Shown: positions 143 to 64,000 of the stretch, piece by piece | Layout: each line of letters starts with the position of its first letter | Numbering within the stretch: the stretch's first letter is position 1 | DNA from: Thermoanaerobaculia bacterium | GTDB lineage: Bacteria; Acidobacteriota; Thermoanaerobaculia; UBA5066; Gp7-AA6 | DNA: 64,000 nt | NCBI GenBank assembly: GCA_035263845.1 | Contig: DATFQY010000005.1 | Location: 6,770 to 70,769 of the forward strand | Reading direction: 5' to 3' | Translations under genes and position numbers: made by a program | The notes under the pieces: generated by a model | Database searches by the model: none | What the model was told of the DNA's origin: nothing | What the model saw: the letters and a program-made list of their open reading frames with translations, nothing else

Positions 143-862
143 CTAATCTTCCCACGCCGCCGACGCCAGGAGATAGGCGGCGCAGGTCGCGGCGCCGTCG
201 TAAGCGACGATGACCCGGATGGGCGTCGAAGCCATCTCGCCTCCCGCGGCCGCGATCGTCGCGGTGATCGCCGAGAGAAGGAGCGGCAAGAGCAGGGGAA
301 AGGAGATCACGACGAAGAGGACGTTCTTCTGCGAGGCCTTCGCGACGAGGGCCGCCAGGAACGTCGAGACCACCGAGAGGCCGTAGCCCCCGAGGACCAT
401 CACGACCACGAGCGCGCCGGCCGAGCCCATCCGCCACTCCAGGAGGATCGCGAAGGCCGGCACGGTGACGGCGGTGATCGCCAGGAAGAGGACGTAATTG
501 AAGAGCGTCTTGCCCGCCAGGGTCAGCGAGGAGGAGACGACTTTGCGCAGCGCGTAGGCGGTCCCCGTCTCCTCCTCGCGCACGAAGGCGCGGGGGAGCC
601 CCGTCGCGGCGCAGAAGAACAAGATGATCCAGAGCAGCGCCGAGCAGACCCGGTCGCGCGCCTCGGCGGGAAGGCCGAAGGGCCCGACGGCGAACGAGAC
701 CAGCGTCACCGCCGTCGCCGCGAAGAAGAAGAGGGACGCCGCCGCGATCCGGCGCCGGAGCTCCTGGGCCGCGTCCTTGGCGCAGACGGCCCAGGCGCGC
801 CGGAGCGGGCCCCAGCCGGAAGACGGAAGAGGTGAGACGGAAGAGGAAACGGAGGCTGCCAT
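143..862 (-). CDS. ccmB: Heme exporter permease CcmB, a polytopic membrane protein.
   Basis: 239 aa hydrophobic protein immediately after ccmA, with only 3 nt between the ccmA stop and its ATG. Length and position are typical of CcmB. Confidence 0.7.
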   Translation of the reverse strand: MAASVSSSVSPLPSSGWGPLRRAWAVCAKDAAQELRRRIAAASLFFFAATAVTLVSFAVGPFGLPAEARDRVCSALLWIILFFCAATGLPRAFVREEETGTAYALRKVVSSSLTLAGKTLFNYVLFLAITAVTVPAFAILLEWRMGSAGALVVVMVLGGYGLSVVSTFLAALVAKASQKNVLFVVISFPLLLPLLLSAITATIAAAGGEMASTPIRVIVAYDGAATCAAYLLASAAWED

Positions 863-865
863 CGT

Positions 866-1510
866 CTACCGTCTAACGTCTGCCGTCTCACGGTCCCCGA
901 GCTCGATCGTCTGGTCGGGCTCCAGGAAATCGCGCGAATCGTTCGAAGCGAGCACGACGAGCCCGGCGCGTCTTTGCGCCCCGACGGCCTTCTCGACGAT
1001 GGCGCGGCCGTCGGCGTCGAGGCCGATCATCGGCTCGTCGAGCAGCAAGATCGGCGGGTCGAAGAGGAGCGAGAATGCGATCTTCAACCGCTGCTTCATC
1101 CCGGTCGAGAAGGCGCCGACCCTCCGGTCGAACGCGCCGGAGAGGCCGACGTCGTCCAGGCGTTGCGCGATCGCGGCTTCGCCGGCCGGCCGCCCGCCCG
1201 CCCTCCCGAAGAAGCGCAGGTTCTCGACCGCCGTGAAATCCTCGTAGAACGCGAGGTCCGGCCCCGCCCACCCCACCGCCAGGCGTCTCTCGTCGCCGGC
1301 CAGCTCCGCGTCGCCGCGGCGGACCGAGACGGAGCCGGAGCTCGCGTGGGCGAGCGACGCGAGGATCTTCAGCAGCGTCGTCTTGCCGCTGCCGTTCCTT
1401 CCCCGGACCGCGAGGAACCCGGACTCGGCGCGAAAGGAGAGCTTCGTGAAGAGAGGCGGCCCCGCGAAGGCCTTCGACAGCTCCCGGGCCTCGAGCGTGG
1501 TTGCGAGCAC
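866..1510 (-). CDS. ccmA: Heme exporter ATP-binding protein CcmA (ABC ATPase).
   Basis: Walker A GRNGSGKTT, Walker B LLLDEP and an ABC signature. 214 aa, first gene of the ccmABC unit. Confidence 0.85.
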   Translation of the reverse strand: MLATTLEARELSKAFAGPPLFTKLSFRAESGFLAVRGRNGSGKTTLLKILASLAHASSGSVSVRRGDAELAGDERRLAVGWAGPDLAFYEDFTAVENLRFFGRAGGRPAGEAAIAQRLDDVGLSGAFDRRVGAFSTGMKQRLKIAFSLLFDPPILLLDEPMIGLDADGRAIVEKAVGAQRRAGLVVLASNDSRDFLEPDQTIELGDRETADVRR

Positions 1511-1674
1511 TCCCGCAAACGTTAGCAGAAGCGCACGCCGTCGCCTTGAAGCGAATGCCTCGCTTCTATATGATCCGGCGGATTCCCGTTCGACTCGAGA
1601 TGTGCGCGTGGGGCGCGCGCCCGGGCCGGGCGCGGATGGGCGAGTTCGTGAAAACTGGATCGAAGGGAGATTGG

Positions 1675-2478
1675 ATGTCGAAGAGGGTCGCGACGTTACT
1701 GCTCGCGCTGGCGATCGCGCTGACGTTCGCCGCGTGCGGAGGCAAGGAAGAGGACGAGGAAGAGGCGGCGGCTCCCGCCAAGCCCGCGGCGTCGACCGCC
1801 GCGGCGGCCCCGGCCGCGGCGCCCGCGGCGGCCCCGGCAGGGGGAGGCGCCACGATCACGGGCAAGGTCGCGTTCACGGGGACGGCTCCGGCCAAGGAGC
1901 AGATCAAGATGGACGCCGACGCGTACTGCAAGGGGGCGCACGCCGAGCCCGTCTACACGCAGGAGGTCGTCGTCAACGGAAACGGGACGCTCGAGTGGGT
2001 CCTGGTCTACGTCAAGGAGGGCGTCACGGGGAGCTACCCGCCGCCCGCCACGCCGGTCACGCTGGACCAGAAGGGGTGCCAGTACTCGCCCCACATCTTC
2101 GGGATCCAGGCGGGCCAGCCGCTGAAGATCGTCAACAGCGACGGGACGCTCCACAACATTCACGCCCTTCCGAAGGTCAACGCCGAGTTCAACATCGGAC
2201 AGCCCTTCCAGAAGATGGAGACGCTCAAGAAGTTCGACAAGGCCGAGGTCCCGCTGCGGTTCAAGTGCGACGTCCACAAGTGGATGGGCGCTTACTGCGG
2301 CGTCTTCAACCACCCGTTCTTCGCGACGACCAACGACCAGGGGACCTTCGAGATCAAGGGCCTGCCGGCGGGCAACTATGTCATCGAGGCCTGGCAGGAG
2401 AAGTACGGGGCGCAGACTCAGAACGTGACCGTCTCCGGTTCAGAGACCAAGACGGTCGATTTCTCGTTCAAGGGCTAG
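1675..2478 (+). CDS. Lipoprotein carrying a type-1 copper (cupredoxin, amicyanin-like) domain plus carboxypeptidase-regulatory-like beta-sandwich segments.
   Basis: The signal peptide and lipobox MSKRVATLLLALAIALTFAAC GG follow an RBS (GGGAGA). Candidate Cu ligands are His in LHNIH (HN motif) and the Cys-x2-His-x2-Met motif KCDVHKWM, the amicyanin loop type. The C-terminal part, TFEIKGLPAGNYVIEA...VTVSGSETKTVDFSF, has a prealbumin-like fold. It lies immediately upstream of coxB. Confidence 0.6.
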   Translation: MSKRVATLLLALAIALTFAACGGKEEDEEEAAAPAKPAASTAAAAPAAAPAAAPAGGGATITGKVAFTGTAPAKEQIKMDADAYCKGAHAEPVYTQEVVVNGNGTLEWVLVYVKEGVTGSYPPPATPVTLDQKGCQYSPHIFGIQAGQPLKIVNSDGTLHNIHALPKVNAEFNIGQPFQKMETLKKFDKAEVPLRFKCDVHKWMGAYCGVFNHPFFATTNDQGTFEIKGLPAGNYVIEAWQEKYGAQTQNVTVSGSETKTVDFSFKG

Positions 2479-2489
2479 GGGTCACTCGG

Positions 2490-3275
2490 GTGAGCGGGCT
2501 TCTCGCGGCGGCGCTTCCGTTCTGGCTCCATCTGCCCGAAGGGGTCTCGAGCTACAGCGGGAAGATCGACGGGATCTTCTCGCTCATCCTCTGGATCACC
2601 GGGATCATCTTCATTCTGGTCGAGGCTCTCCTGCTCTACTTCCTCTTCCGCTACCGGAGCCGGGAGGGGCGCCGCGCCCACTACACGCACGGCAACAACC
2701 GGATCGAGGTCATCTGGACGATCGTCCCGGCCTTCATCTGCGTCGTGCTGGCGCTACTGTCGCGAAGAAGCTGGGCGGAGATCAAGCAGCAGATGCCGGG
2801 CGACGCGATGCAGATCGAGATCCTGGCCGAGCAGTTCGCCTGGAACATCCGGTACCCTGGCCCCGACGGGAAACTCAACACGGCCGACGACATCGTCACG
2901 CTGAACCAGCTGCACTTCCCGGTGGGCCGGTCGGTCGTCGCGACGCTCCGCTCCAAGGACGTCATCCACTCCTTCTTCCTGCCGGAGTTCCGCGTCAAGC
3001 AGGACGCGGTCCCAGGGATGTCCACCCGGATCTGGTTCGACGGGATGCGCACCGGGCACTGGGAGATCGCCTGCGCCGAGCTGTGCGGGCTGGGCCACTA
3101 CCGGATGAAGGGGTTCGTCACGGTCGAGACGCCGCAGGAATTCGAGAAGTGGCTCGCCGAGCAGGCGCCGGCCCAGCCGGCGCAGGCCGCGCCGGGTCAG
3201 CCCGCTCCGGCGGCTCCCGCCCCGGCGGCGCCGACGCCGCACCCGGCGGCACAGGAGGGGAAACAGGGGTCATGA
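2490..3275 (+). CDS. coxB: Cytochrome c oxidase subunit II with a CuA site and no fused cytochrome c domain.
   Basis: CuA motif HWEIACAELCGLGHYRM. An N-terminal TM helix is followed by a cupredoxin fold. Start is GTG at 2490. The C-terminal tail is Pro/Ala-rich and contains no CxxCH. The stop overlaps the coxA ATG (ATGA). Confidence 0.9.
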   Translation: MSGLLAAALPFWLHLPEGVSSYSGKIDGIFSLILWITGIIFILVEALLLYFLFRYRSREGRRAHYTHGNNRIEVIWTIVPAFICVVLALLSRRSWAEIKQQMPGDAMQIEILAEQFAWNIRYPGPDGKLNTADDIVTLNQLHFPVGRSVVATLRSKDVIHSFFLPEFRVKQDAVPGMSTRIWFDGMRTGHWEIACAELCGLGHYRMKGFVTVETPQEFEKWLAEQAPAQPAQAAPGQPAPAAPAPAAPTPHPAAQEGKQGS

Positions 3276-5089
3276 GCACCACGATGCCCGAGCCGCTTCG
3301 CATTCCGGAGCCCGAGGCCGCGCCCGCACCCGCGCACATTCCGGGCGTCCATCCGGCGCCGACGTCCTTCTGGCGGAAATACATCTTCTCGCTCGACCAC
3401 AAGGTCATCGGCAAGCAGTACCTCTTCTACGCGCTCGCGATGCTCATCGTCGGAGGGCTGCTGGCGATTCTCGTCCGCTGGCAGCTCGCCTGGCCCGGCC
3501 GGCCGATCGCGTTCATGGGCAAGCTCTTCCCGGAGGGGATGCCCAACGGCCAGATGCTGCCGGAGTTCTACAACTCGCTGTTCACGATGCACGCGACGAT
3601 CATGATCTTCTTCGCGATCATGCCGATCCTGATCGGCGCGTTCGGCAACTTCGTCGTGCCGATCCAGATCGGGGCGCGCGACATGGCGTTCCCGACTCTG
3701 AACATGCTGTCCTTCTGGACCGCGGTTCCGGCGGCGGTGATCATCATCTGGTCCTTTTTCGTGACCGGGGGCGCGGCACAGTCGGGCTGGACCTCGTACG
3801 CGCCGCTCTCGATCATCCAGCCCAGAGGGCAGACGCTCTGGCTGCTGTCGCTCCTGTTCCTCGGGCTCTCGTCGCTGCTGACGGCGGTCAACTTCATCAC
3901 GACGATCATCAACATGCGGGCGCCGGGGATGACGTTCTTCCGGCTGCCGCTGACGGTGTGGGCGCTCTTCATCACGGCGATCCTGCTGCTGCTGGCGCTG
4001 CCGGTGCTGTCGGGCGCGCTGATCATGATGCTCTTCGACCGGGTGCTCGGGACGACCTTCTTCCTTCCGGCGGGGATGATCGTGTCGGGCCAGCCATGGC
4101 CCAACGCGGGGGGCGGCCAGGCGCTCCTGTGGCAGCACCTGTTCTGGTTCTTCGGGCACCCCGAGGTCTACATCATGATCCTGCCGGCCATGGGGATCAC
4201 CTCGGAGATCCTCCCGGTCTTCTCTCGCAAACCGATCTTCGGATACCGAGCGATGGCGTACTCGATCATGGGCATCGCGGGCCTCGGGTTCATCGTGTGG
4301 GGCCACCACATGTTCCAGAGCGGCATGAACCCGACGCTCGGCACGACCTTCATGATCTCGACGATGGTCATCGCGGTGCCCTCGGCCATCAAGACCTTCA
4401 ACTGGCTGGGGACGCTGTGGGGCGGCAACATCCACTTCACGACGCCGATGCTGAACGCGGTCTCGTTCGTCGCGATGTTCGTCATCGGCGGGCTGTCGGG
4501 GATCTTCATGGCCTCGACCCCGGTGGACATCTTCATCCACGACACGTACTTCATCGTCGGGCACATCCACTACGTGCTCTTCGGCGGCTCGCTCTTCGGG
4601 GCCTTCGCCGGCCTCTACTACTGGTACCCGAAGATGTTCGGGCGCTGCATGAGCGAAAAGTGGGGGAAGGTCCACTGGTTTCTGACGTTCGTGACCTTCA
4701 ACCTCGTTTTCTTCCCGATGCACTTCCTCGGGATGCGCGGGATGCAGCGGCGCATCTACGACTACACGCAGTACGCGCACTTGAAGGGCCTCCAGCCCAT
4801 GAACCAGTTCATGACGATCTCGCTCTTCGTCCTGGGGGCGGCGCAGATCATCCTGGTGTTCAACTTCTTCCTCTCGATGAGGCGCGGCAAGGTCGCGGGG
4901 CCCAACCCGTGGCGGGCCAACACGCTCGAGTGGCAGACATCCTCTCCGCCGCCGCACGAGAATTTCACCGGGCACATCCCGACGGTCTACCGCGGGCCCT
5001 ACGAGTACAGCGCGCCCGAGCGGGCCGACGACCACTGGCCGCAGAACGAGCCGCCCGGGGCCGCGTCTGCTGTGGGAGCCCATGGCTGA
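3272..5089 (+). CDS. coxA: Cytochrome c oxidase subunit I (heme-copper oxidase catalytic subunit).
   Basis: 605 aa polytopic protein with canonical subunit I histidines (for example WGHHMF and HDTYFIVGHIHY). The ATG at 3272 overlaps the coxB stop. Confidence 0.95.
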   Translation: MSTTMPEPLRIPEPEAAPAPAHIPGVHPAPTSFWRKYIFSLDHKVIGKQYLFYALAMLIVGGLLAILVRWQLAWPGRPIAFMGKLFPEGMPNGQMLPEFYNSLFTMHATIMIFFAIMPILIGAFGNFVVPIQIGARDMAFPTLNMLSFWTAVPAAVIIIWSFFVTGGAAQSGWTSYAPLSIIQPRGQTLWLLSLLFLGLSSLLTAVNFITTIINMRAPGMTFFRLPLTVWALFITAILLLLALPVLSGALIMMLFDRVLGTTFFLPAGMIVSGQPWPNAGGGQALLWQHLFWFFGHPEVYIMILPAMGITSEILPVFSRKPIFGYRAMAYSIMGIAGLGFIVWGHHMFQSGMNPTLGTTFMISTMVIAVPSAIKTFNWLGTLWGGNIHFTTPMLNAVSFVAMFVIGGLSGIFMASTPVDIFIHDTYFIVGHIHYVLFGGSLFGAFAGLYYWYPKMFGRCMSEKWGKVHWFLTFVTFNLVFFPMHFLGMRGMQRRIYDYTQYAHLKGLQPMNQFMTISLFVLGAAQIILVFNFFLSMRRGKVAGPNPWRANTLEWQTSSPPPHENFTGHIPTVYRGPYEYSAPERADDHWPQNEPPGAASAVGAHG

Positions 5090-6020
5090 AGCCGGCCGTC
5101 CCGCCAACGTGGGCCTTCACCGCTTCGCGGTGGCCGCGGCGATCGCCACGCTCTTCCTGATCTTCGCGGGAGGGCTGGTCACCTCGACGGAGTCGGGCCT
5201 CTCCGTGCCGGACTGGCCGCTCTCCTACGGCCGGCTGATGCCGCCGATGGTGGGCGGGATCTTCTACGAGCACGGCCACCGGATGGTGGCGACGACGGTA
5301 GGGATCCTGACCGTGATCCTCGCGGTCTGGCTCTCCCGGCGCGAACCGCGCCGGTGGGTCCGACGCCTCGGCTGGGCGGCGCTGGCCGCGGTCGTGGCGC
5401 AAGGAGTCCTCGGCGGAATAACCGTGATCTTCCTCCTCCCGACGGCGGTCTCGGTCGCCCACGCCTGCCTCGCCCAGACGTTCTTCTGCCTCGTCGTGAC
5501 GATTGCCGTCGTGACGTCGAAGAGGTGGCGCGAGGGCCGAGCCGCGGGCGGCGGCGGAGTCACGCGGATCGGCGCCGCGACCGTCGCGGTGGTCTTCCTG
5601 CAACTGTTGGTCGGCGCGCTCATGCGGCACAACAAGGCCGGCCTCGCGATCCCGGACTTCCCGCTGGCGCTCGGCCGCGTGGTGCCGCCGCTCGACTCGT
5701 TCCCGGTCGCAATCCACTTCCTGCACCGCGTGACGGCCGTGCTGGTGCTCGGCTTCGCCGTCGCTTGCGGCGCGCGGGCCTTCGCCTCCCGCAGACCCGG
5801 ATTGAAGAAGACAGCCATCCTGCTGATCGGCCTCGTGTGCGTCCAGATCACGCTCGGGGCGCTGACGGTCCTGACTCACAAGTCCGTCGCGATCACCACG
5901 GCGCACGTCGCGACCGGGGCGCTGATCCTCGGGACGGCGCTCGCGTTCACGCTGGCAACTCTCAAGACCGGGCGCGCCGCGGGCGGCGCCCGCCGGGCGC
6001 ATCTGGAGGCGGTGGCTTGA
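5082..6020 (+). CDS. ctaA: Heme A synthase (CtaA/COX15).
   Basis: Motifs SVPDWPLSYGRLMPPMVGG and EHGHR. 312 aa with 7-8 TM helices. It overlaps the coxA end by 8 nt. Confidence 0.85.
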   Translation: MAEAGRPANVGLHRFAVAAAIATLFLIFAGGLVTSTESGLSVPDWPLSYGRLMPPMVGGIFYEHGHRMVATTVGILTVILAVWLSRREPRRWVRRLGWAALAAVVAQGVLGGITVIFLLPTAVSVAHACLAQTFFCLVVTIAVVTSKRWREGRAAGGGGVTRIGAATVAVVFLQLLVGALMRHNKAGLAIPDFPLALGRVVPPLDSFPVAIHFLHRVTAVLVLGFAVACGARAFASRRPGLKKTAILLIGLVCVQITLGALTVLTHKSVAITTAHVATGALILGTALAFTLATLKTGRAAGGARRAHLEAVA

Positions 6021-6898
6021 GGGCCGTCGCTTCGGCGCTCGCTGCCTCGCCCTCGAGGGTCGGAGCGTTCCTCGAGCTGACCAAGCCCCGGATCACGGCT
6101 CTCGTGCTCGTCACGGCCGCCGTCGGCTACGCGATCGGCGCCGGGAGCGGACTCGATCCCCTCGTCTTCCTCGCGCTGATGGCCGGGACCGCGATGGTCG
6201 CCGGGGGCGCGTCGGCCCTGAACCAGTACTCCGAGCGCGAGGCGGACGCGCGGATGGAGCGCACCCGCCGCCGACCGCTCCCGTCGGGGCGCGTTTCCCC
6301 GGGCGAGGCGCTCGCCTTCGGCCTCGCCATTTCCGGCGCGGGCCTCGTCGTTCTCGCGACGATCAACCCGCTGACGGCGATCCTGGGAGCGATCGCGCTG
6401 ACGAGCTACGCGCTTCTCTACACGCCGTTGAAGCGGATTACGTCCCTCTGCACGGTCGTGGGCGCGGTCCCGGGGGCGATCCCGCCGCTGATGGGCTGGG
6501 CGGCCGCGCGCGGCAGCCTCTCGGCCGGAGCGTGGGCCCTCTTCGGGGTCCTCTTCCTCTGGCAGCTCCCTCACTTCCTGGCCATCGGCTGGATCTACCG
6601 CGAGGACTACGCGCGCGGCGGGTTCCCGATGCTGACGGTGCTCGACCCCGACGGCGCCTCGACGGGGCGCCAGATGATGCTCTACTCGGCCGCGCTCGTA
6701 CCGGTGACGCTGCTGGCCGGCGCCCTGGCGTCGGCCGGCCCCGGGTACCTGTGGAGCGCGCTCGCGCTGGGAGCGCTCTTTTTCGCCGGCTCGGCGAGGT
6801 TCTTCCGGCAGAGGTCGCTGGCCTCGGCTCGGCTGGTGTTTCTCGTTTCGATCCTCTACCTGCCGGTCGTCCTCGGCCTCATGGTGTTCGACCGATGA
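6017..6898 (+). CDS. ctaB: Protoheme IX farnesyltransferase (heme O synthase, CtaB/CyoE).
   Basis: UbiA-family motifs (ELTKPRIT, NQYSEREADARMERTRRRPLPSG). The putative TTG start at 6017 overlaps the ctaA stop. The exact start is uncertain. Confidence 0.85.
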   Translation: MRAVASALAASPSRVGAFLELTKPRITALVLVTAAVGYAIGAGSGLDPLVFLALMAGTAMVAGGASALNQYSEREADARMERTRRRPLPSGRVSPGEALAFGLAISGAGLVVLATINPLTAILGAIALTSYALLYTPLKRITSLCTVVGAVPGAIPPLMGWAAARGSLSAGAWALFGVLFLWQLPHFLAIGWIYREDYARGGFPMLTVLDPDGASTGRQMMLYSAALVPVTLLAGALASAGPGYLWSALALGALFFAGSARFFRQRSLASARLVFLVSILYLPVVLGLMVFDR

Positions 6899-7039: not shown

Positions 7040-7330
7040 ATGACGGAGTCCGGTCACAAGTCCCCGAACTACATGGCCATCTTCTGGTGGCTCGCCGGGT
7101 TCACCGCCGTCGAGGTCGCGTACTCCTCGATCCTGCCGCACAGCCAGAAGGCCCTGTTGATCATCGGGCTCGTCGGCTTCGCGGCGATCAAGGCGACGCT
7201 CGTGGCGCTGTACTTCATGCACTTGAGATTCGAGCGCAAGAGCCTGGGGATCATCGTCGGCTCGACGCTCATCCTGGGCGTGATCCTCGTCTCCGTCGGA
7301 ATGGCGGAGACGTGGCTGCCACGCCCCTGA
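7040..7330 (+). CDS. Cytochrome c oxidase subunit IV (prokaryotic CtaF/CoxD family).
   Basis: 96 aa with three TM helices. The ALYFMHL segment is typical of bacterial subunit IV. It lies between ctaB and coxC. Confidence 0.7.
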   Translation: MTESGHKSPNYMAIFWWLAGFTAVEVAYSSILPHSQKALLIIGLVGFAAIKATLVALYFMHLRFERKSLGIIVGSTLILGVILVSVGMAETWLPRP

Positions 7331-7343
7331 CGAAGGAGTCCTG

Positions 7344-7946
7344 ATGGAAGCGATCGCGGTCCCCCACGGGCACGGGCACGAGGAGGAATACACCACGACG
7401 GGAATCCCCCACGACAAGATGGGGATGTGGGTCTTCCTCTGCTCCGAGGTCATGTTCTTCACCGGGCTGATCGGGTCCTACATCGTCCTGCGGTTCGCGA
7501 CGCCGCTCTGGCCGCCCCCGGCGTCGGTCCTGAACATCCCGCTGACGGCGATGAACACCTTCATCCTGATCTGCTCCTCCGTCACGATGGTTCAGTCGCT
7601 CGCCGCGATCTCCCGCAACGACACGCGGAAGATGAAGCTCTACCTCTGCCTGACGCTGATGTTCGGGGCGATCTTCCTGTCGATCCAGGGGGTCGAGTAC
7701 TGGAAGCTCGTCCACGAGGGGTTCAACCCGCACGTCTCGCTCTTCGGGTCCGTCTTCTTCACGACAACGGGGTTCCACGGGTTCCACGTCTTCTGCGGCG
7801 TCGTCTGCATGGCGTTCGTCACCGGGAAGGCCTTCCTCGGCAAGTACACGCAGGCGAGCCATCAGGGAATCGAGACGCTGGGCCTCTACTGGCACTTCGT
7901 GGACCTGGTGTGGATCGTGCTTTTTACGATCATTTACCTGATCTGA
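7344..7946 (+). CDS. coxC: Cytochrome c oxidase subunit III.
   Basis: 200 aa with a conserved subunit III C-terminus (FHGFHV...LYWHFVDLVWIVLF). Confidence 0.9.
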   Translation: MEAIAVPHGHGHEEEYTTTGIPHDKMGMWVFLCSEVMFFTGLIGSYIVLRFATPLWPPPASVLNIPLTAMNTFILICSSVTMVQSLAAISRNDTRKMKLYLCLTLMFGAIFLSIQGVEYWKLVHEGFNPHVSLFGSVFFTTTGFHGFHVFCGVVCMAFVTGKAFLGKYTQASHQGIETLGLYWHFVDLVWIVLFTIIYLI

Positions 7947-8383
7947 CTTTCCGCTGGGCCGACCTGGCCACCCTCAATGCCTGCCTGAACGCGACGAGCG
8001 CGCTCTTCCTCCTGCTCGGAAGGAGAGCGATCCGGCGGCTGGAGATCGGCCGGCACCGGAGGTTGATGATTTCGGCGGCGGTGACCTCGGGCCTCTTCCT
8101 CGTCTCCTACCTGACCTACCACGCCAAGGCCGGCTCGGTTCGGTTCCCGGGGACGGGCCTCGTCCGGCCGGTGTACTTCGCGATCCTCATCTCGCACACG
8201 CTGCTGGCCGCTGCGGTGCCGCCCCTCGCCCTGAGGGCGCTCTACCTGGGCCTGAAGCGCCGCGATGAGAAGCACCGGCGCGTCGCGCGCTGGGCCTACC
8301 CGATCTGGCTCTACGTGTCGGTCACGGGCGTCCTGGTCTACCTGATGCTCTACCGCCTTTACGCGCCCGGCGGGCTCCGTTAA
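7910..8383 (+). CDS. DUF420/CtaM-like membrane protein, an accessory protein of aa3 oxidases.
   Basis: The C-terminal signature HRRVARWAYPIWLYVSVTGVLVYLMLY matches my memory of DUF420, with 3-4 TM helices. The start is inferred as GTG at 7910, overlapping the coxC end, and is uncertain. Confidence 0.55.
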   Translation: MDRAFYDHLPDLTFRWADLATLNACLNATSALFLLLGRRAIRRLEIGRHRRLMISAAVTSGLFLVSYLTYHAKAGSVRFPGTGLVRPVYFAILISHTLLAAAVPPLALRALYLGLKRRDEKHRRVARWAYPIWLYVSVTGVLVYLMLYRLYAPGGLR

Positions 8384-8403: not shown

Positions 8404-8733
8404 ATGAAAACGGCCGCCCGCGTCCTGCTCGTCCTCGCGCTCGCCGGCCTCCTGGCCCCGGCCGTTTCGACGGCCTGCCCGCTCTGCAAGGAGGCCAAGT
8501 CCGACACCGACTATCCCGGCGGCGCGGCCTCGCTCCCGAAGGGCTTCTACTACTCGATCCTGCTGATGGTCGGCGCTCCGTTCGCCGTGGTCGGAGGGCT
8601 CGGGTTGAAGATCTTCCTCGCCCGCCGGAGGGCGCTCGCCCCGAACGCCCGGCCGGTGGCGACCCGCGCCGCTTCCGGTCCCGCGGCGGCGGCCTCTCGG
8701 CTCCTTCCCGACTCGCGGGGGGCCCAGCCCTGA
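8404..8733 (+). CDS. Small secreted, membrane-tethered protein with a CPLC motif.
   Basis: Signal peptide MKTAARVLLVLALAGLLAPAVSTA, then a CPLCKEAK motif, a TM helix and a basic low-complexity tail. It is the last gene of the cox cluster. Confidence 0.45.
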   Translation: MKTAARVLLVLALAGLLAPAVSTACPLCKEAKSDTDYPGGAASLPKGFYYSILLMVGAPFAVVGGLGLKIFLARRRALAPNARPVATRAASGPAAAASRLLPDSRGAQP

Positions 8734-9677: not shown

Positions 9678-10330
9678 GCGTCCTTCCGAAGGTCCTCGGC
9701 GCGGCCATCGCTCTTCACCGGGCGACGCTGAAGGTCGAGCTTCTCCACGAGGACCGCTACCGCGCGCTCGCGCGGCGCGAGGTCCCGATCCTCTTCGTGC
9801 TATGGCACGGCCGGATGTACCTTTCGATCCAGGCCCACCGGCGCCAGGGGATCGTGACGATGGCGTCGCAGTCGAAGGACGGCGAGCTGATCGCGAGGTG
9901 GCTCGAGGCCAACGGCTACGTCGTCGTCCGGGGGTCGAGCTCCCGCGGGGGCGGCCAGGCCCTGCGCGAGATGGTGCGGCAGGTGCGCTCGGGGCGGCAT
10001 GCCGCGTTGACGGTGGACGGCCCAAGAGGGCCCGCGCGAATCGTTCAGCCGGGCGTGGTCCAGCTCGCGCGCCTGACCGGCGCGTGGATCCTCCCGATCA
10101 CGTCCTCGAGCGCGAGCGGCAAGCTCCTCTCCTCCTGGGACCGGTTCCTCTTGCCGCGCCCCTTCTCGCGCAACGTCGTCGCCTACGGTGAGCCCTTCCC
10201 GATCTCCGCGGAGCAGACCGAGGAGGCGGCGCTCTCGCGGGTCGCCGCGGCCCTGGACGGCGCCACCGCGGAGGCGGACGAGGCGGCCGGTCTCGCCCCG
10301 GAGCCCCGGCGGCTGGAGAGGCCCGCGTGA
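9674..10330 (+). CDS. DUF374-type lysophospholipid acyltransferase-like protein.
   Basis: GTG at 9674 overlaps the upstream stop (GTGA). Acyltransferase-like blocks are VLWHGRM, VRGSSSRGG, TVDGPRGP and WILPI. Confidence 0.5.
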   Translation: MSVLPKVLGAAIALHRATLKVELLHEDRYRALARREVPILFVLWHGRMYLSIQAHRRQGIVTMASQSKDGELIARWLEANGYVVVRGSSSRGGGQALREMVRQVRSGRHAALTVDGPRGPARIVQPGVVQLARLTGAWILPITSSSASGKLLSSWDRFLLPRPFSRNVVAYGEPFPISAEQTEEAALSRVAAALDGATAEADEAAGLAPEPRRLERPA

Positions 10331-10710
10331 AGCGCCCGGGCCTGCGCACGCTCGCGCTCTTCGCGGTGGCCCTCGCGCTCGCCGGCGGAGCGGTCTGGTT
10401 CGTGCGCGGCCGCGGCCCGCGGCCCGTCCGGATCTCGGGAAAAACCGTCGCGTCGGATGGGAGACCGCTCTCCGGTGTGGAGGTCACACTCGAGGTGGCG
10501 CCCGACGACACGGAGGAGGAAGGCGCGGTCGAGCGCGCGGGCACGGTCTCCGACGAGAACGGAGACTTCTCCATCGAGTACCAGTCGCACTGGAAGGCTC
10601 CCTCCTATCGTCTCGCCGCGGCCAAGGCCGGCTACCGCGAGCTGTCGGTGGGATCGGCCGAGACGCTCAAGCCGCCGGTCATGCTGCGCCTGGCCCCGGT
10701 CAATCCCTGA
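10327..10710 (+). CDS. Membrane-anchored protein with a carboxypeptidase-regulatory-like domain.
   Basis: An N-terminal TM anchor is followed by ISGKTVASDGRPLSGVEVTL...DENGDFSIEY, a beta-sandwich signature. The start overlaps the upstream stop. Confidence 0.5.
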   Translation: MKRPGLRTLALFAVALALAGGAVWFVRGRGPRPVRISGKTVASDGRPLSGVEVTLEVAPDDTEEEGAVERAGTVSDENGDFSIEYQSHWKAPSYRLAAAKAGYRELSVGSAETLKPPVMLRLAPVNP

Positions 10711-11658: not shown

Positions 11659-12792
11659 TCAGACCGGCACCGAGACCGGTTCCGCGCGCGACCCGGACCG
11701 GACCACACGCCGGTAGTGCGCATCCCGCTCGACCGGTTCCCGCCCGGACTCCCGGATCAGCCGCTCGAAGTCGGTCCTCGACATTCCAGAGGCCGTCGTC
11801 GCGCCCGCGGCGTGGGTGATCGTTTCGTCCACGACGGTCCCGACGAGGTCGTCCGCGCCGAAGAAGAGCGCGATCTGGGCCAGCTTGACGCCGATCTGAA
11901 TCCAGTACGCCTTGACGTGCGGGATGTTGTCGAGCAGCAGCCTCGAGACCGCGATGACTCGAAGGTCCGTCTGGCCGGAGGAGGCCGGCAGGTCGGCGAG
12001 CGGGGTGTTCTCCGGATGGAAGGCCAGGGGGATCAGGCCCGTGAGGCCTCCCGTCTCGTCCTGCAGCCGGCGCAGGCGGAGCAGGTGGTCCACCCGGTCC
12101 TCGACGGTCTCGACGTGGCCATAGAGCATCGTGGCGTTGGTCTTGATCCCCTGGAGATGGCACTCCCGCGCGATCGCGAGCCATTCCTCGCCGGTGATCT
12201 TGTTCTTGCAGATACGATCCCGGACGCGCTTCTCGAAGATCTCGGCGCCGCCCCCCGGGCAGGAATCCATCCCGGCTTCGTGAAGCAGGCGGATCGTCTC
12301 GGGGATCGACTTGCCGCCGACCCGGGCGATCCAGTCGATCTCGACCATCGTGAAGGCCTTGAGGTGAACGCCGGGGAAGCGCTCCTTGAGCGCCCGGAGA
12401 AGGCCGGTGTAGTACTCGAACGGCCACGTCGGATGGAGTCCTCCGACGATGTGGAACTCGGTGACGGCCTCGCTGTAGCCCTTGCCCGCCTCCTCGACGC
12501 ATTCCCCGATCGCCATCTCGTAGCCGCCCGGCTCGTTGACCTTCCGGGCCCACGCGCAGAGGGCGCAGTCCACCCAGCAGAGGTTGGTGGGATTCAGGTA
12601 ACGGTTGACGTTGTAGAAGGCGAGGTTGCCGTGCCGCTCCTCACGCACCCGGTTGGCCAGGCGTCCAAGGCCCAGGAAATCCTTCGTCCGGAAGAGGCGG
12701 ACGCCGTCGTCGAAGGTGAGTCGCTCCCCGGCGAAGACTTTCTCGGCGAGCTCCGAGAGCTCCGAGCCGCGGAAGGATTCGAGCCCGCTCAC
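11659..12792 (-). CDS. Radical SAM enzyme of the futalosine menaquinone pathway (MqnC/MqnE family); the CofG/CofH alternative is not excluded.
   Basis: CxxxCxxC cluster CWVDCALC, about 377 aa, global similarity to MqnC/MqnE-type radical SAM enzymes. The GTG start at 12792 overlaps the stop of the upstream small ORF (GTGA). Confidence 0.75.
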   Translation of the reverse strand: MSGLESFRGSELSELAEKVFAGERLTFDDGVRLFRTKDFLGLGRLANRVREERHGNLAFYNVNRYLNPTNLCWVDCALCAWARKVNEPGGYEMAIGECVEEAGKGYSEAVTEFHIVGGLHPTWPFEYYTGLLRALKERFPGVHLKAFTMVEIDWIARVGGKSIPETIRLLHEAGMDSCPGGGAEIFEKRVRDRICKNKITGEEWLAIARECHLQGIKTNATMLYGHVETVEDRVDHLLRLRRLQDETGGLTGLIPLAFHPENTPLADLPASSGQTDLRVIAVSRLLLDNIPHVKAYWIQIGVKLAQIALFFGADDLVGTVVDETITHAAGATTASGMSRTDFERLIRESGREPVERDAHYRRVVRSGSRAEPVSVPV

Positions 12793-13013
12793 GGAATGGC
12801 GGGCTTGGTGACCGGCTGGTAGGGCTCCCGCGACTCGGGCGCGATGTCGTCCACGAAGGGCTGGACGTAGCGATAGCACTCCCAGCAGTACTTCTCCTCG
12901 GCTTGGAACTGGAAGTCCACGACCCTGCCGACGGCCGGGAAATCCAGGATCTCCTTGCCGCAGCGGTGGCAGTGGTCCTTCTGTCCGCGAATCAGTCTCC
13001 AGACGGGACCCAT
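12789..13013 (-). CDS. Small zinc-ribbon protein (74 aa) translationally coupled to the Mqn radical SAM gene.
   Basis: Two CxxC pairs (HCHRCG and CWEC). An RBS AGGATGA lies upstream of the ATG. Its TGA stop overlaps the GTG start of the downstream gene. Confidence 0.5.
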   Translation of the reverse strand: MGPVWRLIRGQKDHCHRCGKEILDFPAVGRVVDFQFQAEEKYCWECYRYVQPFVDDIAPESREPYQPVTKPAIP

Positions 13014-13028
13014 GAGGTTTTCATCCTA

Positions 13029-60784: not shown

Positions 60785-60875
60785 TGAGGGAAGCGAAGCG
60801 ACCGAAGGATCTACTCGATTGAGCCGCGTGATTCCCTTTCAGACCCGTCTCGCCTCTCTGCCATAGAATCGGGCC

Positions 60876-61898
60876 GTGGCGACGCTGGATACGTTTCGCA
60901 GGCCGCTGAAAAACCTGCGGTTGTCGGTCACGGACCGGTGCAACCTGCGCTGCCAGTACTGCATGCCGGAGAGGGACTACGTCTGGCTGCCGCGCAAGGA
61001 CATCCTGGATTTCGAGGAGATCAGCACGCTCGTGGGCGTCTTCACGGAGCTGGGAGTGGACCGGGTCCGGCTGACGGGGGGCGAGCCGCTGGTCCGGCGG
61101 GACCTGCCGGAACTCATCCGGCTCCTCGCCGCCAGGCCGGCGTTGAAGGACCTCGCGCTGACAACCAACGGGGTACTCCTGGCCGAGAAGGCCCGGGAGC
61201 TGAAGGACGCGGGCTTGAAGCGCGTCACGGTCAGCCTCGACACCTTGCAGCGCGACCGCTTCCAGGCGCTCACCCGATTCGACGACCACGCGCGGGTGTT
61301 GGCCGGGATCGAGGCTTCGGCCGGAGCGGGCTTCGAGTCCGTCAAGATCGACGCGGTCGTCATCCGCGGCGTCAACGAGGACGAGCTGGTGCCGCTGCTC
61401 GAATACGGCCGGAGAGTCGGGGCGGAGGTCCGGTTCATCGAGTACATGGACGTCGGCGGCGCGACCCAGTGGACGAGGGACAAGGTCGTCTCCCGCGCCG
61501 AGATGCTGGGAGCGCTCGCCCGCCACTATGGCCCGATCCAGCCGGTCGAGGAGAAAACCTCGGCCCCCGCCGAGCGGTTCCGGCTCCCCGACGGGACGAT
61601 CTTCGGGATCATCGCCTCGACGACGGCGCCTTTCTGCGGCTCCTGCGACCGCAGCCGGCTGACGGCCGACGGGCTCTGGTACCTCTGCCTCTACGCGGCG
61701 CGCGGGATCGACCTACGCGGGCCGCTGCGCGCCGGGGCGTCGGTCCACGAGATCAAAGAGATCCTCCAGGGCTCCTGGACCCGCCGGGCCGACCGCGGCG
61801 CCGAGGAGCGGCTGGCGCTTCGCGAGCGGTCGCCGCTCGTGCCGCTGACCGCTCTTCGCGGAGACCCTCACCTGGAAATGCACACGCGGGGGGGCTAG
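60876..61898 (+). CDS. moaA: GTP 3',8-cyclase (molybdenum cofactor biosynthesis protein A).
   Basis: N-terminal radical [11 protein letters not shown] and a C-terminal auxiliary cluster [13 protein letters not shown]. 340 aa, GTG start. Confidence 0.9.
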
Positions 61899-62220: not shown

Positions 62221-62715
62221 TCAGCCTTTTGGAGCGGCGGCCTCCAGGAGCTTCCACTCTTCCGGCGTGAGGTGGGGGGCGGCGGCGGGGAAGTAGACGC
62301 CGGCCATTTCCGATTCGTGGGCGGAGAAGCGGCGGGCGAGGTTCTCGATCAGGCCGAGCAGGTCCGAGAGTGGCGCGCCGCGCGAGACCTCCTCGGAGAG
62401 GAACCGGGCCAGCTCCCGCACTTGCACGCAGTTGAGGCGCAGCTCCCGCCGGGGATCGCGTCCCGGCACTCCGGCGTGCAGGACCGCGGGAAGAAGCACG
62501 GCTTCCTCCGCCTCGGTCCACCGTTTCACGCACAAGTGAAAGTCGGCCAGCGCGACCCGGTACGCCTCCGTGTCCCGCCGATCGAAGGCTCCCCGGAAAT
62601 CCTCGAACCGGGACCGAAGCGAACTCTGTGCCCCTGTGAGACCCTCGACGCTTCTTTCCACCTCTAACCCTGGACCGTTCTCTGACCCCGGAGCACGGAC
62701 ATCAGAGTCCGGCAA
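62221..62715 (-). CDS. Hemerythrin-like (HHE cation-binding) domain protein.
   Basis: The spaced His/Glu pattern (ADFH...HAG...HESE...PH) resembles a hemerythrin four-helix metal site. Low certainty. Confidence 0.4.
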   Translation of the reverse strand: MPDSDVRAPGSENGPGLEVERSVEGLTGAQSSLRSRFEDFRGAFDRRDTEAYRVALADFHLCVKRWTEAEEAVLLPAVLHAGVPGRDPRRELRLNCVQVRELARFLSEEVSRGAPLSDLLGLIENLARRFSAHESEMAGVYFPAAAPHLTPEEWKLLEAAAPKG

Positions 62716-63448
62716 GTCCCGGCTCGATCCGCGTATACCCCTGTTCCACGGCCCACAGGTCCATTGCGATCGAGAGGAGCTCGTCCACCTCCGGGATCGG
62801 ACGAGCGTCCAGCGAAAGGTCCAGCGACTTCACGTAGCGATGGCAGGTCTCGCATGCCTCGATCCGGACCGCCGGGTGCCGGTCGTTCTGGAACGAGGGG
62901 AGCCGGTACGGGTCCCCCTCGAAGCAGGCGGGACAGAAGATCCGGTTGATCCTCCACTCCAGCCCGCAGAGCGCGCAGGCCAGCGTCCGCCGCGCCCCTT
63001 CCTGGAGCGAGCCCTCCCGTCGAACCGCCATCCACGGCGCGCCGCCGCAGAAGGGGCACTTGCCCTGCTTGTGCACTCGGTCCGGGGCCAGGTTCCAGGA
63101 GCGGAGGAACTCGACGTAGGGACGGAGGATCGCGCGAGAGAGGTAGTCCTCGGTGGAGGGCCGGTCTCCCGCCCAGTACACGAGGAGCCGCGTGCGCGCC
63201 GTCGAAGGCAGGTCGCTGCGCCGCTCTCGCGACTCTTCCGAGAGGGCCGGCGGGCCCTCCTCCTGCGCATACCGGAGGACCGCGGCGCCGATGCCGGCGA
63301 GCCTTTCCGCGTCGTCATCGAGGTGGGCCGTCAGCGCGTCGTCGCGATGCGCCGCGGCAAGGAGGTCGGCCCCGCGGGCCTGGATCCGGTACAGTCCCGC
63401 CGCGAACCGGAGCGGCTCCTCCGCGGCGGCCGCCTGGCGCGCCAGCAA
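62702..63448 (-). CDS. fdhE: Formate dehydrogenase accessory protein FdhE.
   Basis: Four CxxC pairs with FdhE spacing (CPFCGG, CALCG, CPAC, CETCH). 248 aa. Confidence 0.8.
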   Translation of the reverse strand: MLARQAAAAEEPLRFAAGLYRIQARGADLLAAAHRDDALTAHLDDDAERLAGIGAAVLRYAQEEGPPALSEESRERRSDLPSTARTRLLVYWAGDRPSTEDYLSRAILRPYVEFLRSWNLAPDRVHKQGKCPFCGGAPWMAVRREGSLQEGARRTLACALCGLEWRINRIFCPACFEGDPYRLPSFQNDRHPAVRIEACETCHRYVKSLDLSLDARPIPEVDELLSIAMDLWAVEQGYTRIEPGLAGL

Positions 63449-63494
63449 CTCCGCCCGCTCCGCGCGGCGCTCGAATTCCGAGACGAGCTTCGAA

Positions 63495-64000
63495 CTATCC
63501 GCGGTCCGGCTCCTGGCCCGTCACCTCGCGGTACCAGCGCCCGTGGTGCAAGCGCGCCCATCTCTTCGTCACCGTTCCGCGAGTCATCGAAACCAAGGTG
63601 CCAGGCTCGGCGACGGTTCCCAGATAGATGTGGATCACGATCAGCATCGCGAAGAGGATGAACGTGATGTCGTGGATCAGATAGCCGAGTTCCATCAGGA
63701 AACGCGGGAAGACGCCCGGAAACCACATGAGCAGCCCGGAAAGAAGCATGCCGAGCGCGGCGAGACAGACGAGCCAGAACTGGAGCTTCTGACCGCCGTT
63801 GTACTTTCCAACGTTGGAATCATCGGTCTCATAGCGCATGTAACGCATCGGTAATCGCCACCCGATCCATTCGCGCTCCGAAGAGTCGAGTGACATGTCG
63901 GCGAACCAGTGAACGAACATCACGGCGCTGGCGAGGAAGAAAACGACGCCCGCCCACGGGTGGATCACGCGGCAGACGGAGAGCCCGCCGAAAAAAGCAG
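63495..64000 (-). CDS. fdoI: Formate dehydrogenase cytochrome b556 (gamma) subunit, C-terminal part. The gene continues past the window end.
   Basis: Heme-ligand His pattern and TM helices typical of FdnI/FdoI (HWFADM, LIHDITFILFAMLIVIHIYLG). The ORF is open to the window edge. Confidence 0.7.
   Translation of the reverse strand, partial: AFFGGLSVCRVIHPWAGVVFFLASAVMFVHWFADMSLDSSEREWIGWRLPMRYMRYETDDSNVGKYNGGQKLQFWLVCLAALGMLLSGLLMWFPGVFPRFLMELGYLIHDITFILFAMLIVIHIYLGTVAEPGTLVSMTRGTVTKRWARLHHGRWYREVTGQEPDRG

Follow-up and report, generated by a model that had tools for sequence, protein, structure and literature searches.

A predicted lipid-tethered cupredoxin encoded at the head of aa3 oxidase operons in Thermoanaerobaculia and other bacteria: a candidate electron carrier to CuA

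What is the role of a small lipoprotein whose gene opens an aa3-type cytochrome oxidase operon, immediately in front of the gene for the CuA-bearing subunit II? This question is raised by a stretch of 64,000 nucleotides, here called the window, from a Thermoanaerobaculia bacterium (GenBank assembly GCA_035263845.1, contig DATFQY010000005.1, positions 6,770 to 70,769 of the forward strand), in which the gene of such a protein, here termed cupLipo, precedes coxB. Judging from its sequence and that of its relatives, cupLipo is probably, although with no high confidence, a lipid-tethered type-1 copper carrier that links a quinol-oxidising complex to the CuA centre of the oxidase.

The ATG start codon of cupLipo at 1675 lies seven bases past a GGGAG sequence, and the reading frame, which encodes 267 amino acids, closes with TAG at 2476-2478. 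The N-terminus of the protein, MSKRVATLLLALAIALTFAAC, has the form of a signal peptide with a terminal lipobox, i.e. MSKR, a hydrophobic stretch and FAAC. Cys21 and Gly22 were invariant in 38 of 38 homologues, and a crude lipobox pattern could also be found in 68 of 122 distant family representatives. The adjoining tether is predicted to be disordered (AlphaFold pLDDT ~33) and varies in length among homologues. These features suggest that cupLipo is lipidated, and it may be sited on the inner membrane. The stop codon is separated by 11 nucleotides from the GTG start codon of coxB at 2490, in front of which AGGGG is found, and a scan between the two genes revealed no terminator-like site. The close spacing suggests that cupLipo and coxB are co-transcribed. 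A first-pass annotation of the window had described a lipid-anchored protein encoded before coxB, and the invariant lipobox cysteine and the position of coxB agree with this description.

When searched as a single sequence, cupLipo matched only CarboxypepD_reg in Pfam (PF13620, residues 217-264, 39.2 bits against a cut-off of 32.3), and no cupredoxin was found in the single-sequence Pfam, NCBIfam and PDB searches. The window protein did not match PF00127 or PF13473 at E<0.01 and lies outside these curated models; among 123 family representatives only seven matched PF00127 at this threshold. A profile of 38 sequences was likewise too shallow to reveal a cupredoxin, and a family profile was therefore needed, which was built from an alignment of the 123 representatives (41-62% identical to the window protein). 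Comparison of this profile with amicyanin by hhalign gave a probability of 88% and an E value of 3e-6, and paired His160 with His53, Cys198 with Cys92, His201 with His95 and Met204 with Met98. In an hmmsearch against the PDB, the family profile matched 9cck (1.8e-5), 5fc9 (3.8e-5) and amicyanin (~3e-4). The strands at 59-68, 105-115 and 216-266 make up a seven-strand transthyretin-like sandwich, while eight strands within 128-211 form a Greek-key cupredoxin. As the strands of the sandwich flank those of the cupredoxin, the latter is inserted into the sandwich and not merely fused to it; of the earlier proposal, a cupredoxin fused to a carboxypeptidase-regulatory sandwich, the sandwich was retained and the simple fusion was not. 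The module of sandwich and cupredoxin was also observed in repeated or multi-domain proteins outside the standard cupLipo form. Protein P0271 (547 amino acids; L089 2267-3910, where L numbers denote family loci), the gene of which stands outside any cox context, is read as a tandem double module because it is long enough for this and because similar proteins show two matched stretches. Three matched stretches were seen in P0169 (601 amino acids), seven in P0227 (3,178 amino acids) and one C-terminal module in P0243 (1,805 amino acids).

Conservation of the copper site was counted over the same 123 representatives. His160, Cys198 and His201 were kept in all of them and Met204 in 122, and the neighbouring residues Asn161 and Trp203 were kept in 119 and 122, respectively. 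The family thus has an upstream His and a C-terminal Cys-His-Met loop at homologous positions, and the conservation of these ligands is far above chance, indicating selection on a complete type-1 site with a short amicyanin loop. With all four ligands aligned with those of amicyanin, the amicyanin-type site read from the window alone held for the family. Two further cysteines, Cys85 and Cys135, were kept in 122 and 123 representatives, respectively. This pair ties a low-confidence loop (residues 69-104) to the cupredoxin, probably by a disulfide. The possibility that Cys85, His89, Cys135 and His140 make up another metal site was considered and judged unlikely, since His89 (94 of 123) and His140 (97 of 123) were less well kept than the near-invariant cysteine pair.

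A strictly conserved, complete type-1 site implies selected redox or copper chemistry. This argues against the view that cupLipo is an accessory subunit or stabiliser, the sandwich of which docks on CoxB and protects or tunes CuA off the main electron path, narrowly in the manner of AcoP, or that it is an unrelated redox protein linked to cox genes by inheritance. The transthyretin-like sandwich, for which no redox role is obvious, could serve for docking, and AcoP has been investigated as a protein that partners an oxidase (PMC4059628). Passive synteny would, however, have to account for a cox linkage that outlasts extensive shuffling of gene order and a G+C range of 29-69%, and we regard this group of explanations as improbable.

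The window CoxB scored 173.9 bits on TIGR02866 (cut-off 147.7) and is a member of this equivalog family. It carries the CuA motif H-x34-C-A-E-L-C-x3-H-x2-M at 2967-3107, Trp118 within EQFAW (codon 2841-2843) and a Pro/Ala-rich C-terminal tail, and no CxxCH heme-c motif was found in it, all in agreement with the first-pass annotation as regards CuA, tail and missing cytochrome c domain. Co-occurrence of the lipoprotein with such a CoxB was likewise confirmed beyond the window: in 102 CoxB proteins from gene clusters of the family, the CuA ligands were present in 102 and a fused cytochrome c or CxxCH in none. The lack of a cytochrome c domain had also been taken as a pointer to a copper donor, and this argument failed, as a CoxB without fused cytochrome c is the ordinary state of aa3 oxidases, e.g. 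in Paracoccus and Rhodobacter (PMC9145763), and alone implies no non-cytochrome donor. The oxidases of Terriglobia have been described as caa3, encoded in superoperons with bc1 or alternative complex III (ACIII), and a protein such as cupLipo is unmentioned there (PMC8407424); the contrast would fit a replacement of the fused cytochrome c domain by the cupredoxin.

A CoxB lacking CuA was suspected in 15 relatives and rejected, because the search pattern had missed an exchange of Glu for Gln (CAQLC) and all CuA ligands were there. CAQLC replaces CAELC in the CoxB of L083, L124, L130, L145, L161, L170, L184, L189, L195 and L203, and CoxB proteins of this form are encoded away from coxA or downstream of it, not in front. 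The CoxB of L134 has CSQFC, with the other CuA ligands intact.

When species genomes were scanned, 310 contained a relative. The best 80 of these 310 were examined, all of them metagenome-assembled genomes of Thermoanaerobaculia or Acidobacteriota, and in 80 of 80 cupLipo stood immediately before coxB, the gene position reported for AcoP. As far as the contigs permitted, divergent ccmB and ccmA were found on one side and coxA, ctaA, ctaB, cox4 and coxC on the other. A coding-like open reading frame (ORF) with CxxCH was present within 8 kb on either side of cupLipo in 7 of the 80 relatives; six of these ORFs lay 4-6 kb upstream, past the ccm genes, and the seventh, antisense inside the coordinates of ctaB, is probably spurious. 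No cytochrome c gene was conserved within 8 kb on either side across the clade, and neither the window nor the 8 kb flanking the gene on each side in the clade loci contained a homologue of the Rieske, cytochrome b or octaheme proteins. A CxxCH scan of the coding-like ORFs revealed no c-type cytochrome genes across the 64-kb window.

Beyond this clade the family is large and scattered. cupLipo has 2,281 homologues, and a search of 1.84 billion cluster representatives returned 12,475 clusters at E<=1e-3, a number that probably includes sandwich-only proteins, and 1,413 at E<=1e-30. Named members derive from Thermoanaerobaculia, Vicinamibacterales, Gemmatimonadota, Calditrichota and one Anaerolineae bin, those from Gemmatimonadota and Calditrichota being single ones, and the cupLipo loci range in G+C from 29 to 69%. 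Members are currently named 'carboxypeptidase regulatory-like domain protein' (NCBI) or 'plastocyanin' (IMG), and no Pfam or NCBIfam model calls the family a cupredoxin.

Among members with 54-62% identity to the window protein, other gene arrangements occurred, i.e. cupLipo, ctaA and DUF420 convergent with the cox operon (L081 and L087), cupLipo, ctaA, ctaB, an ABC transporter, SCO1 and DUF420 (L083), or cupLipo and coxB (L085). Distant loci were collected by a metagenome scan with the back-translated consensus KCDVHPWM, chosen to avoid a bias towards the window clade, which carries KCDVHKWM and was thereby excluded. The scan yielded 114 loci with a family member, 77 of which contained at least one cox or cta gene. 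A downstream neighbour was defined as the direct neighbour on the same strand within 700 bp; 25 loci reached the end of the contig on this side, and 89 were informative. The neighbour was ctaA in 26 loci, coxA in 24, coxB in 13, coxC in 3, SCO1 in 2 and ctaB in 1, and another or unknown gene in 20, i.e. a cox or cta gene, with SCO1 counted in, directly followed cupLipo in 69 of the 89. Cox genes were rare upstream, indicating that cupLipo usually leads the operon. Since ctaA and coxA prevail among the distant neighbours, the conserved link, which spans several phyla, is with the whole cox/cta operon of A-type oxidases, and adjacency to coxB is specific to the clade; the pairing of lipoprotein and coxB claimed from the window therefore holds for close relatives and for only a minority of distant ones. 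Tandem pairs of cupLipo were seen in nine loci. The DNA pattern matched twice in L092, L099, L108, L134 and L141, and there the copper loop was kept in both copies. SCO1 was found in the same cluster as cupLipo in ten loci, indicating that cupLipo does not simply replace this CuA assembly factor.

The single most frequent arrangement, cupLipo followed by ctaA, persists where coxB and coxA are on the opposite strand (L081, L083 and L087). Both observations would be accounted for if the cupredoxin exchanged electrons with CtaA, or with another redox step of biogenesis, and not with the finished oxidase, an explanation that we hold to be very improbable. We know of no established physiological electron donor of bacterial CtaA, and it is a long shot that the cupredoxin is this missing periplasmic redox partner, or that it serves the oxidase as well as CtaA. 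In the window clade, as in 40 further loci, cupLipo directly adjoins a structural gene (coxB, coxA or coxC). Also, ctaB and coxA usually come after ctaA, so that cupLipo simply heads the whole operon, and nothing indicates that it is coupled, physically or in evolution, to certain types of CtaA.

On the upstream side, the gene of an octaheme cytochrome c was the neighbour of cupLipo in 15 of 66 informative distant loci. The protein (~930-1,020 amino acids) comprises an N-terminal membrane helix, a charged, helical-looking stretch of ~170 residues and eight CxxCH motifs. In ten loci its gene was preceded by Rieske, cytochrome b6-like and subunit IV-like genes (Pfam; tblastn), often with a HEAT-repeat gene ahead of them, and most of the other octaheme loci end at a contig edge. 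In L092, L141, L149, L151, L174 and L188 (G+C 34-68%), the genes for Rieske, cytochrome b6, subunit IV and octaheme cytochrome c, one or two copies of cupLipo and the cox/cta genes follow one another on the same strand; the first cox/cta gene is coxB in four of these loci, ctaA in L151 and coxA in L188. In L103 (4871-7986) cupLipo heads an operon of Rieske and a cytochrome b-cytochrome c fusion, with no cox genes in view. The operon of HEAT-repeat, Rieske, b6-like, subunit IV-like and octaheme genes was observed at L092 5229-11857 (minus strand) and also in L133, L141, L148, L149, L151, L174, L188 and L189. It looks like an unusual complex III, the genes of which often form one superoperon with those of the cupredoxin and the aa3 oxidase. 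Of the arguments from gene context, the strongest one for electron transfer is that the cupLipo gene lies between those of its presumed donor and acceptor complexes. These loci also bear on how exclusive a donor cupLipo could be. A conserved cytochrome c neighbour, set out beforehand as evidence against the proposal, is found in some distant loci and not within 8 kb of the gene in the window clade. The candidate donor accordingly stands as the best-supported reading, while the claim of the first-pass annotation that it is a dedicated or sole donor does not.

In the mechanism that we infer, including the direction of electron flow, the partners and the direct transfer to CuA, cupLipo would be held at the periplasmic face of the membrane by its N-terminal lipid and a flexible tether of ~36 residues, and its amicyanin-type site (His160, Cys198, His201 and Met204) would alternate between Cu(II) and Cu(I). 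It would take electrons from a quinol-oxidising complex, which as seen only in relatives would be Rieske/cytochrome b with the membrane-anchored octaheme cytochrome c, and would pass them to the CuA of CoxB, from where they would proceed to heme a and then to the heme a3-CuB site.

A different use of the copper site is rather unlikely, i.e. that cupLipo is a copper chaperone or assembly factor which binds copper in the periplasm and delivers it to CuA (or CuB), or keeps these sites loaded, as an analogue of PCuAC or Bacillus CtaK. The operons led by cupLipo contain ctaA, the commonest neighbour (26 of 89), as well as ctaB, SCO1 and DUF420/ctaM, and domain searches of the window proteins found no SCO1, PCuAC or CtaG genes in the window operon. 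Cupredoxin-like folds include chaperones, among them PCuAC (PMC9145763), and CupA was among the fold matches of cupLipo. PCuAC and CtaK resemble cupLipo in being small periplasmic proteins or lipoproteins with a copper-binding beta-sandwich and a genetic link to cox genes (PMC9145763), and they differ from it in that cupLipo lacks the PCuAC motif H(M)x10Mx21HxM and has the ligand set of an electron-transfer protein. It had no Pfam or NCBIfam match to the PCuAC (DUF461) or CtaK families and is not a member of PCuAC. Its set, His...Cys-x2-His-x2-Met with Asn after the first His, is buried and not Met/His-rich. Type-1 sites bind copper tightly and exchange it slowly, which counts against a chaperone. 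SCO1 is moreover present beside cupLipo in some clusters, as stated above, and both the position between complex III and cox/cta genes and the tandem copies are better explained by a carrier.

Several observations weigh against cupLipo as a carrier to CuA. The prevalence of ctaA among the distant neighbours, with SCO1, ctaB and DUF420 nearby, fits assembly about equally, and a link to the whole cox/cta operon also suits an assembly role. A gene for a CusF-like periplasmic copper protein follows cupLipo in L167 (3063-3580), a context of copper homeostasis that fits a chaperone. A minority of members stand in unrelated contexts, with no cox genes in view at L088, L089 and L181. An octaheme cytochrome c could itself reduce CuA in those loci where its gene adjoins cupLipo. 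Copper binding and redox activity of cupLipo are predicted from the ligands, and the AlphaFold model is moderate (mean pLDDT 74.5), with very low confidence in the loop of residues 78-84. Nor does the sequence predict that cupLipo stays in the inner membrane, because Gly follows the lipidated Cys.

Among known cupredoxins, the copper site closest to that of cupLipo is found in amicyanin of Paracoccus, with an identity of only ~18%. Amicyanin is a soluble, stand-alone protein that serves methylamine dehydrogenase and cytochrome c-551i; it has no sandwich, lipid anchor or oxidase operon. Type-1 copper proteins, some of them tethered, have been proposed or shown to reduce heme-copper oxidases, i.e. 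sulfocyanin and halocyanin in archaea and plastocyanin with the cyanobacterial aa3 oxidase. The pairing in the window had been set against the archaeal donors as a bacterial case, which it is, and a bacterial precedent exists in AcoP ('cup') of the rus operon of Acidithiobacillus ferrooxidans (bioRxiv 10.1101/2020.03.01.968255; PMC4059628). AcoP appears to be the closest functional analogue of cupLipo. As predicted for cupLipo, AcoP is a membrane-bound cupredoxin with a single copper, and its gene stands just before that of COX2 in an aa3 oxidase operon, upstream of heme A genes (bioRxiv 10.1101/2020.03.01.968255); AcoP exchanges electrons with a cytochrome c (PMC5982212). AcoP consists of a single domain with a green copper site (PMC4059628, PMC10804444), whereas cupLipo has the short amicyanin loop, the sandwich insertion, a predicted lipid and a long tether; the two are likened by gene position and description, AcoP not being among the PDB matches listed. 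Auracyanin of Chloroflexus and Roseiflexus is, as proposed for cupLipo, a blue copper protein associated with a bacterial membrane and reduced by a complex that oxidises quinol, in this case ACIII (PMC10873879, PMC3150298). It is set apart, by description, in that its main partner is the photosynthetic reaction centre, its gene lies outside cox operons and it has no sandwich insertion. That a bacterial oxidase should have a cupredoxin as its partner is thus not new, given the precedents of plastocyanin and of AcoP and auracyanin (PMC4059628, PMC5982212, PMC10873879). What is new is a cupredoxin within a CarboxypepD_reg sandwich on a predicted lipid tether, as well as the large number and phylogenetic range of the family members, their steady place at the head of aa3 operons and their lack of recognition. 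Literature searches on the architecture and on the family found no paper describing either.

Table 1. Features of cupLipo and of the surrounding oxidase operon, in coordinates of the window
Feature	Position	Strand	Evidence or remark
ccmB, heme exporter permease	143..862	-	Pfam CcmB 76.1 bits; divergent from oxidase operon; synteny kept in close relatives
ccmA-like ABC ATPase	866..1510	-	Pfam ABC_tran 75.3 bits
Promoter-like site TTGAAG, 17 nt, TATGAT	1546..1574	+	Divergent intergenic region; consensus scan
cupLipo, 267-residue predicted lipoprotein cupredoxin, first gene of operon	1675..2478	+	ORF, ribosome-binding site, 2,281 homologues
Signal peptide and lipobox, residues 1-21, ...LTFAAC	1675..1737	+	Sequence pattern; Cys21 predicted lipidation site
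Flexible tether, residues 22-57	1738..1845	+	36 residues: 17 Ala, 5 Pro, 5 Glu
N-terminal strands of split CarboxypepD_reg beta-sandwich and Cys85-containing loop, residues 58-124	1846..2046	+	
Cys85 codon	1927-1929	+	
Cupredoxin domain, residues ~125-212	2047..2310	+	
Cys135 codon	2077-2079	+	
His160 codon	2152-2154	+	Type-1 copper site
Cys198 codon	2266-2268	+	Type-1 copper site
His201 codon	2275-2277	+	Type-1 copper site
Met204 codon	2284-2286	+	Type-1 copper site
C-terminal part of CarboxypepD_reg beta-sandwich, residues 213-267	2311..2475	+	Pfam PF13620; pLDDT 92-96
coxB, aa3-type subunit II	2490..3275	+	TIGR02866; Pfam COX2_TM, COX2; motifs
coxA, subunit I	3272..5089	+	Pfam COX1 526 bits; GHPEV at residue 295
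ctaA, heme A synthase	5082..6020	+	Pfam COX15-CtaA 144 bits
ctaB, heme O synthase	6017..6898	+	tblastn synteny; UbiA in relatives; start TTG 6017 inferred
Subunit IV	7040..7330	+	Pfam COX4_pro 48.9 bits
coxC, subunit III	7344..7946	+	Pfam COX3 100 bits
ctaM-like DUF420 membrane protein	7910..8383	+	Pfam DUF420 148.7 bits; start uncertain
Small secreted, membrane-anchored CPLC-motif protein, last gene of operon	8404..8733	+	No Pfam match

The remaining genes of the operon are those of an aa3 oxidase and its assembly (Table 1). CoxA scored 659.6 bits on TIGR02891, slightly below the curated cut-off of 670.75, yet it is clearly subunit I. An ORF for 43 amino acids lies between ctaB and the subunit IV gene, and terminator-like matches within ctaB were dismissed as their frequency was not above chance. 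DUF420 is the CtaM assembly factor (PMC9145763). The product of the last gene (109 amino acids) has a signal peptide, CPLC immediately behind it and a membrane helix at the C-terminus; CP[LNM]C was found in 52 of 57 homologues and any CxxC in 53, including those of the distant loci L115 and L134. The protein may take part in the assembly of CuA by handling thiols or copper. The promoter-like site is weak evidence, with one match seen against 0.5 expected by chance in the consensus scan.

Divergent ccmABC genes had been reported beside the operon. Both ccmA and ccmB were identified in the window, whereas ccmC lies outside its left edge and was seen in the closest relative, L001, as a Cytochrom_C_asm (CcmC-like) gene after ccmB (L001 5549-6211). 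The gene past ccmC in L001 encodes an unrelated oxidoreductase; only ccmA, ccmB and ccmC were clustered, and ccmE, ccmF and ccmH were not searched for. ccmA and ccmB adjoin the oxidase operon in every close relative with a long enough contig, despite the operon containing no cytochrome c gene.

The remainder of the window consists of housekeeping genes. Its only coding-like ORF with CxxCH (62702-63520, minus strand) encodes an FdhE-like protein with central and C-terminal domains and was rejected as a cytochrome c; MoaA is encoded nearby at 60867-61898. A small ORF ~1.5 kb past the operon (10192-10710, plus strand) scored 28.9 bits on CarboxypepD_reg, which is under the cut-off, and no cupredoxin was seen in it. 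At 11659-13020 (minus strand) a radical-SAM protein with a CofH/MqnC C-terminal region is encoded, which suggests menaquinone synthesis by the futalosine route and hence a menaquinol-based respiratory chain.

Many metagenome-assembled genomes of soil and sediment Acidobacteriota (Thermoanaerobaculia and Vicinamibacterales) contain aa3 operons that begin with cupLipo, and the same is true of single named members of Gemmatimonadota and Calditrichota. The family deserves a profile model of its own, because the general cupredoxin models miss it, and its domain-in-domain build is a new scaffold for a type-1 copper site. If cupLipo is the physiological donor, aerobic respiration in these organisms would end in a path through a type-1 copper and then CuA, and not through a small cytochrome c, and genome-based reconstruction of their respiratory chains would change. 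Oxygen respiration in these lineages would then be tied more tightly to the copper supply, and the cupredoxin and the CuA domain would form a defined, testable pair of partners.

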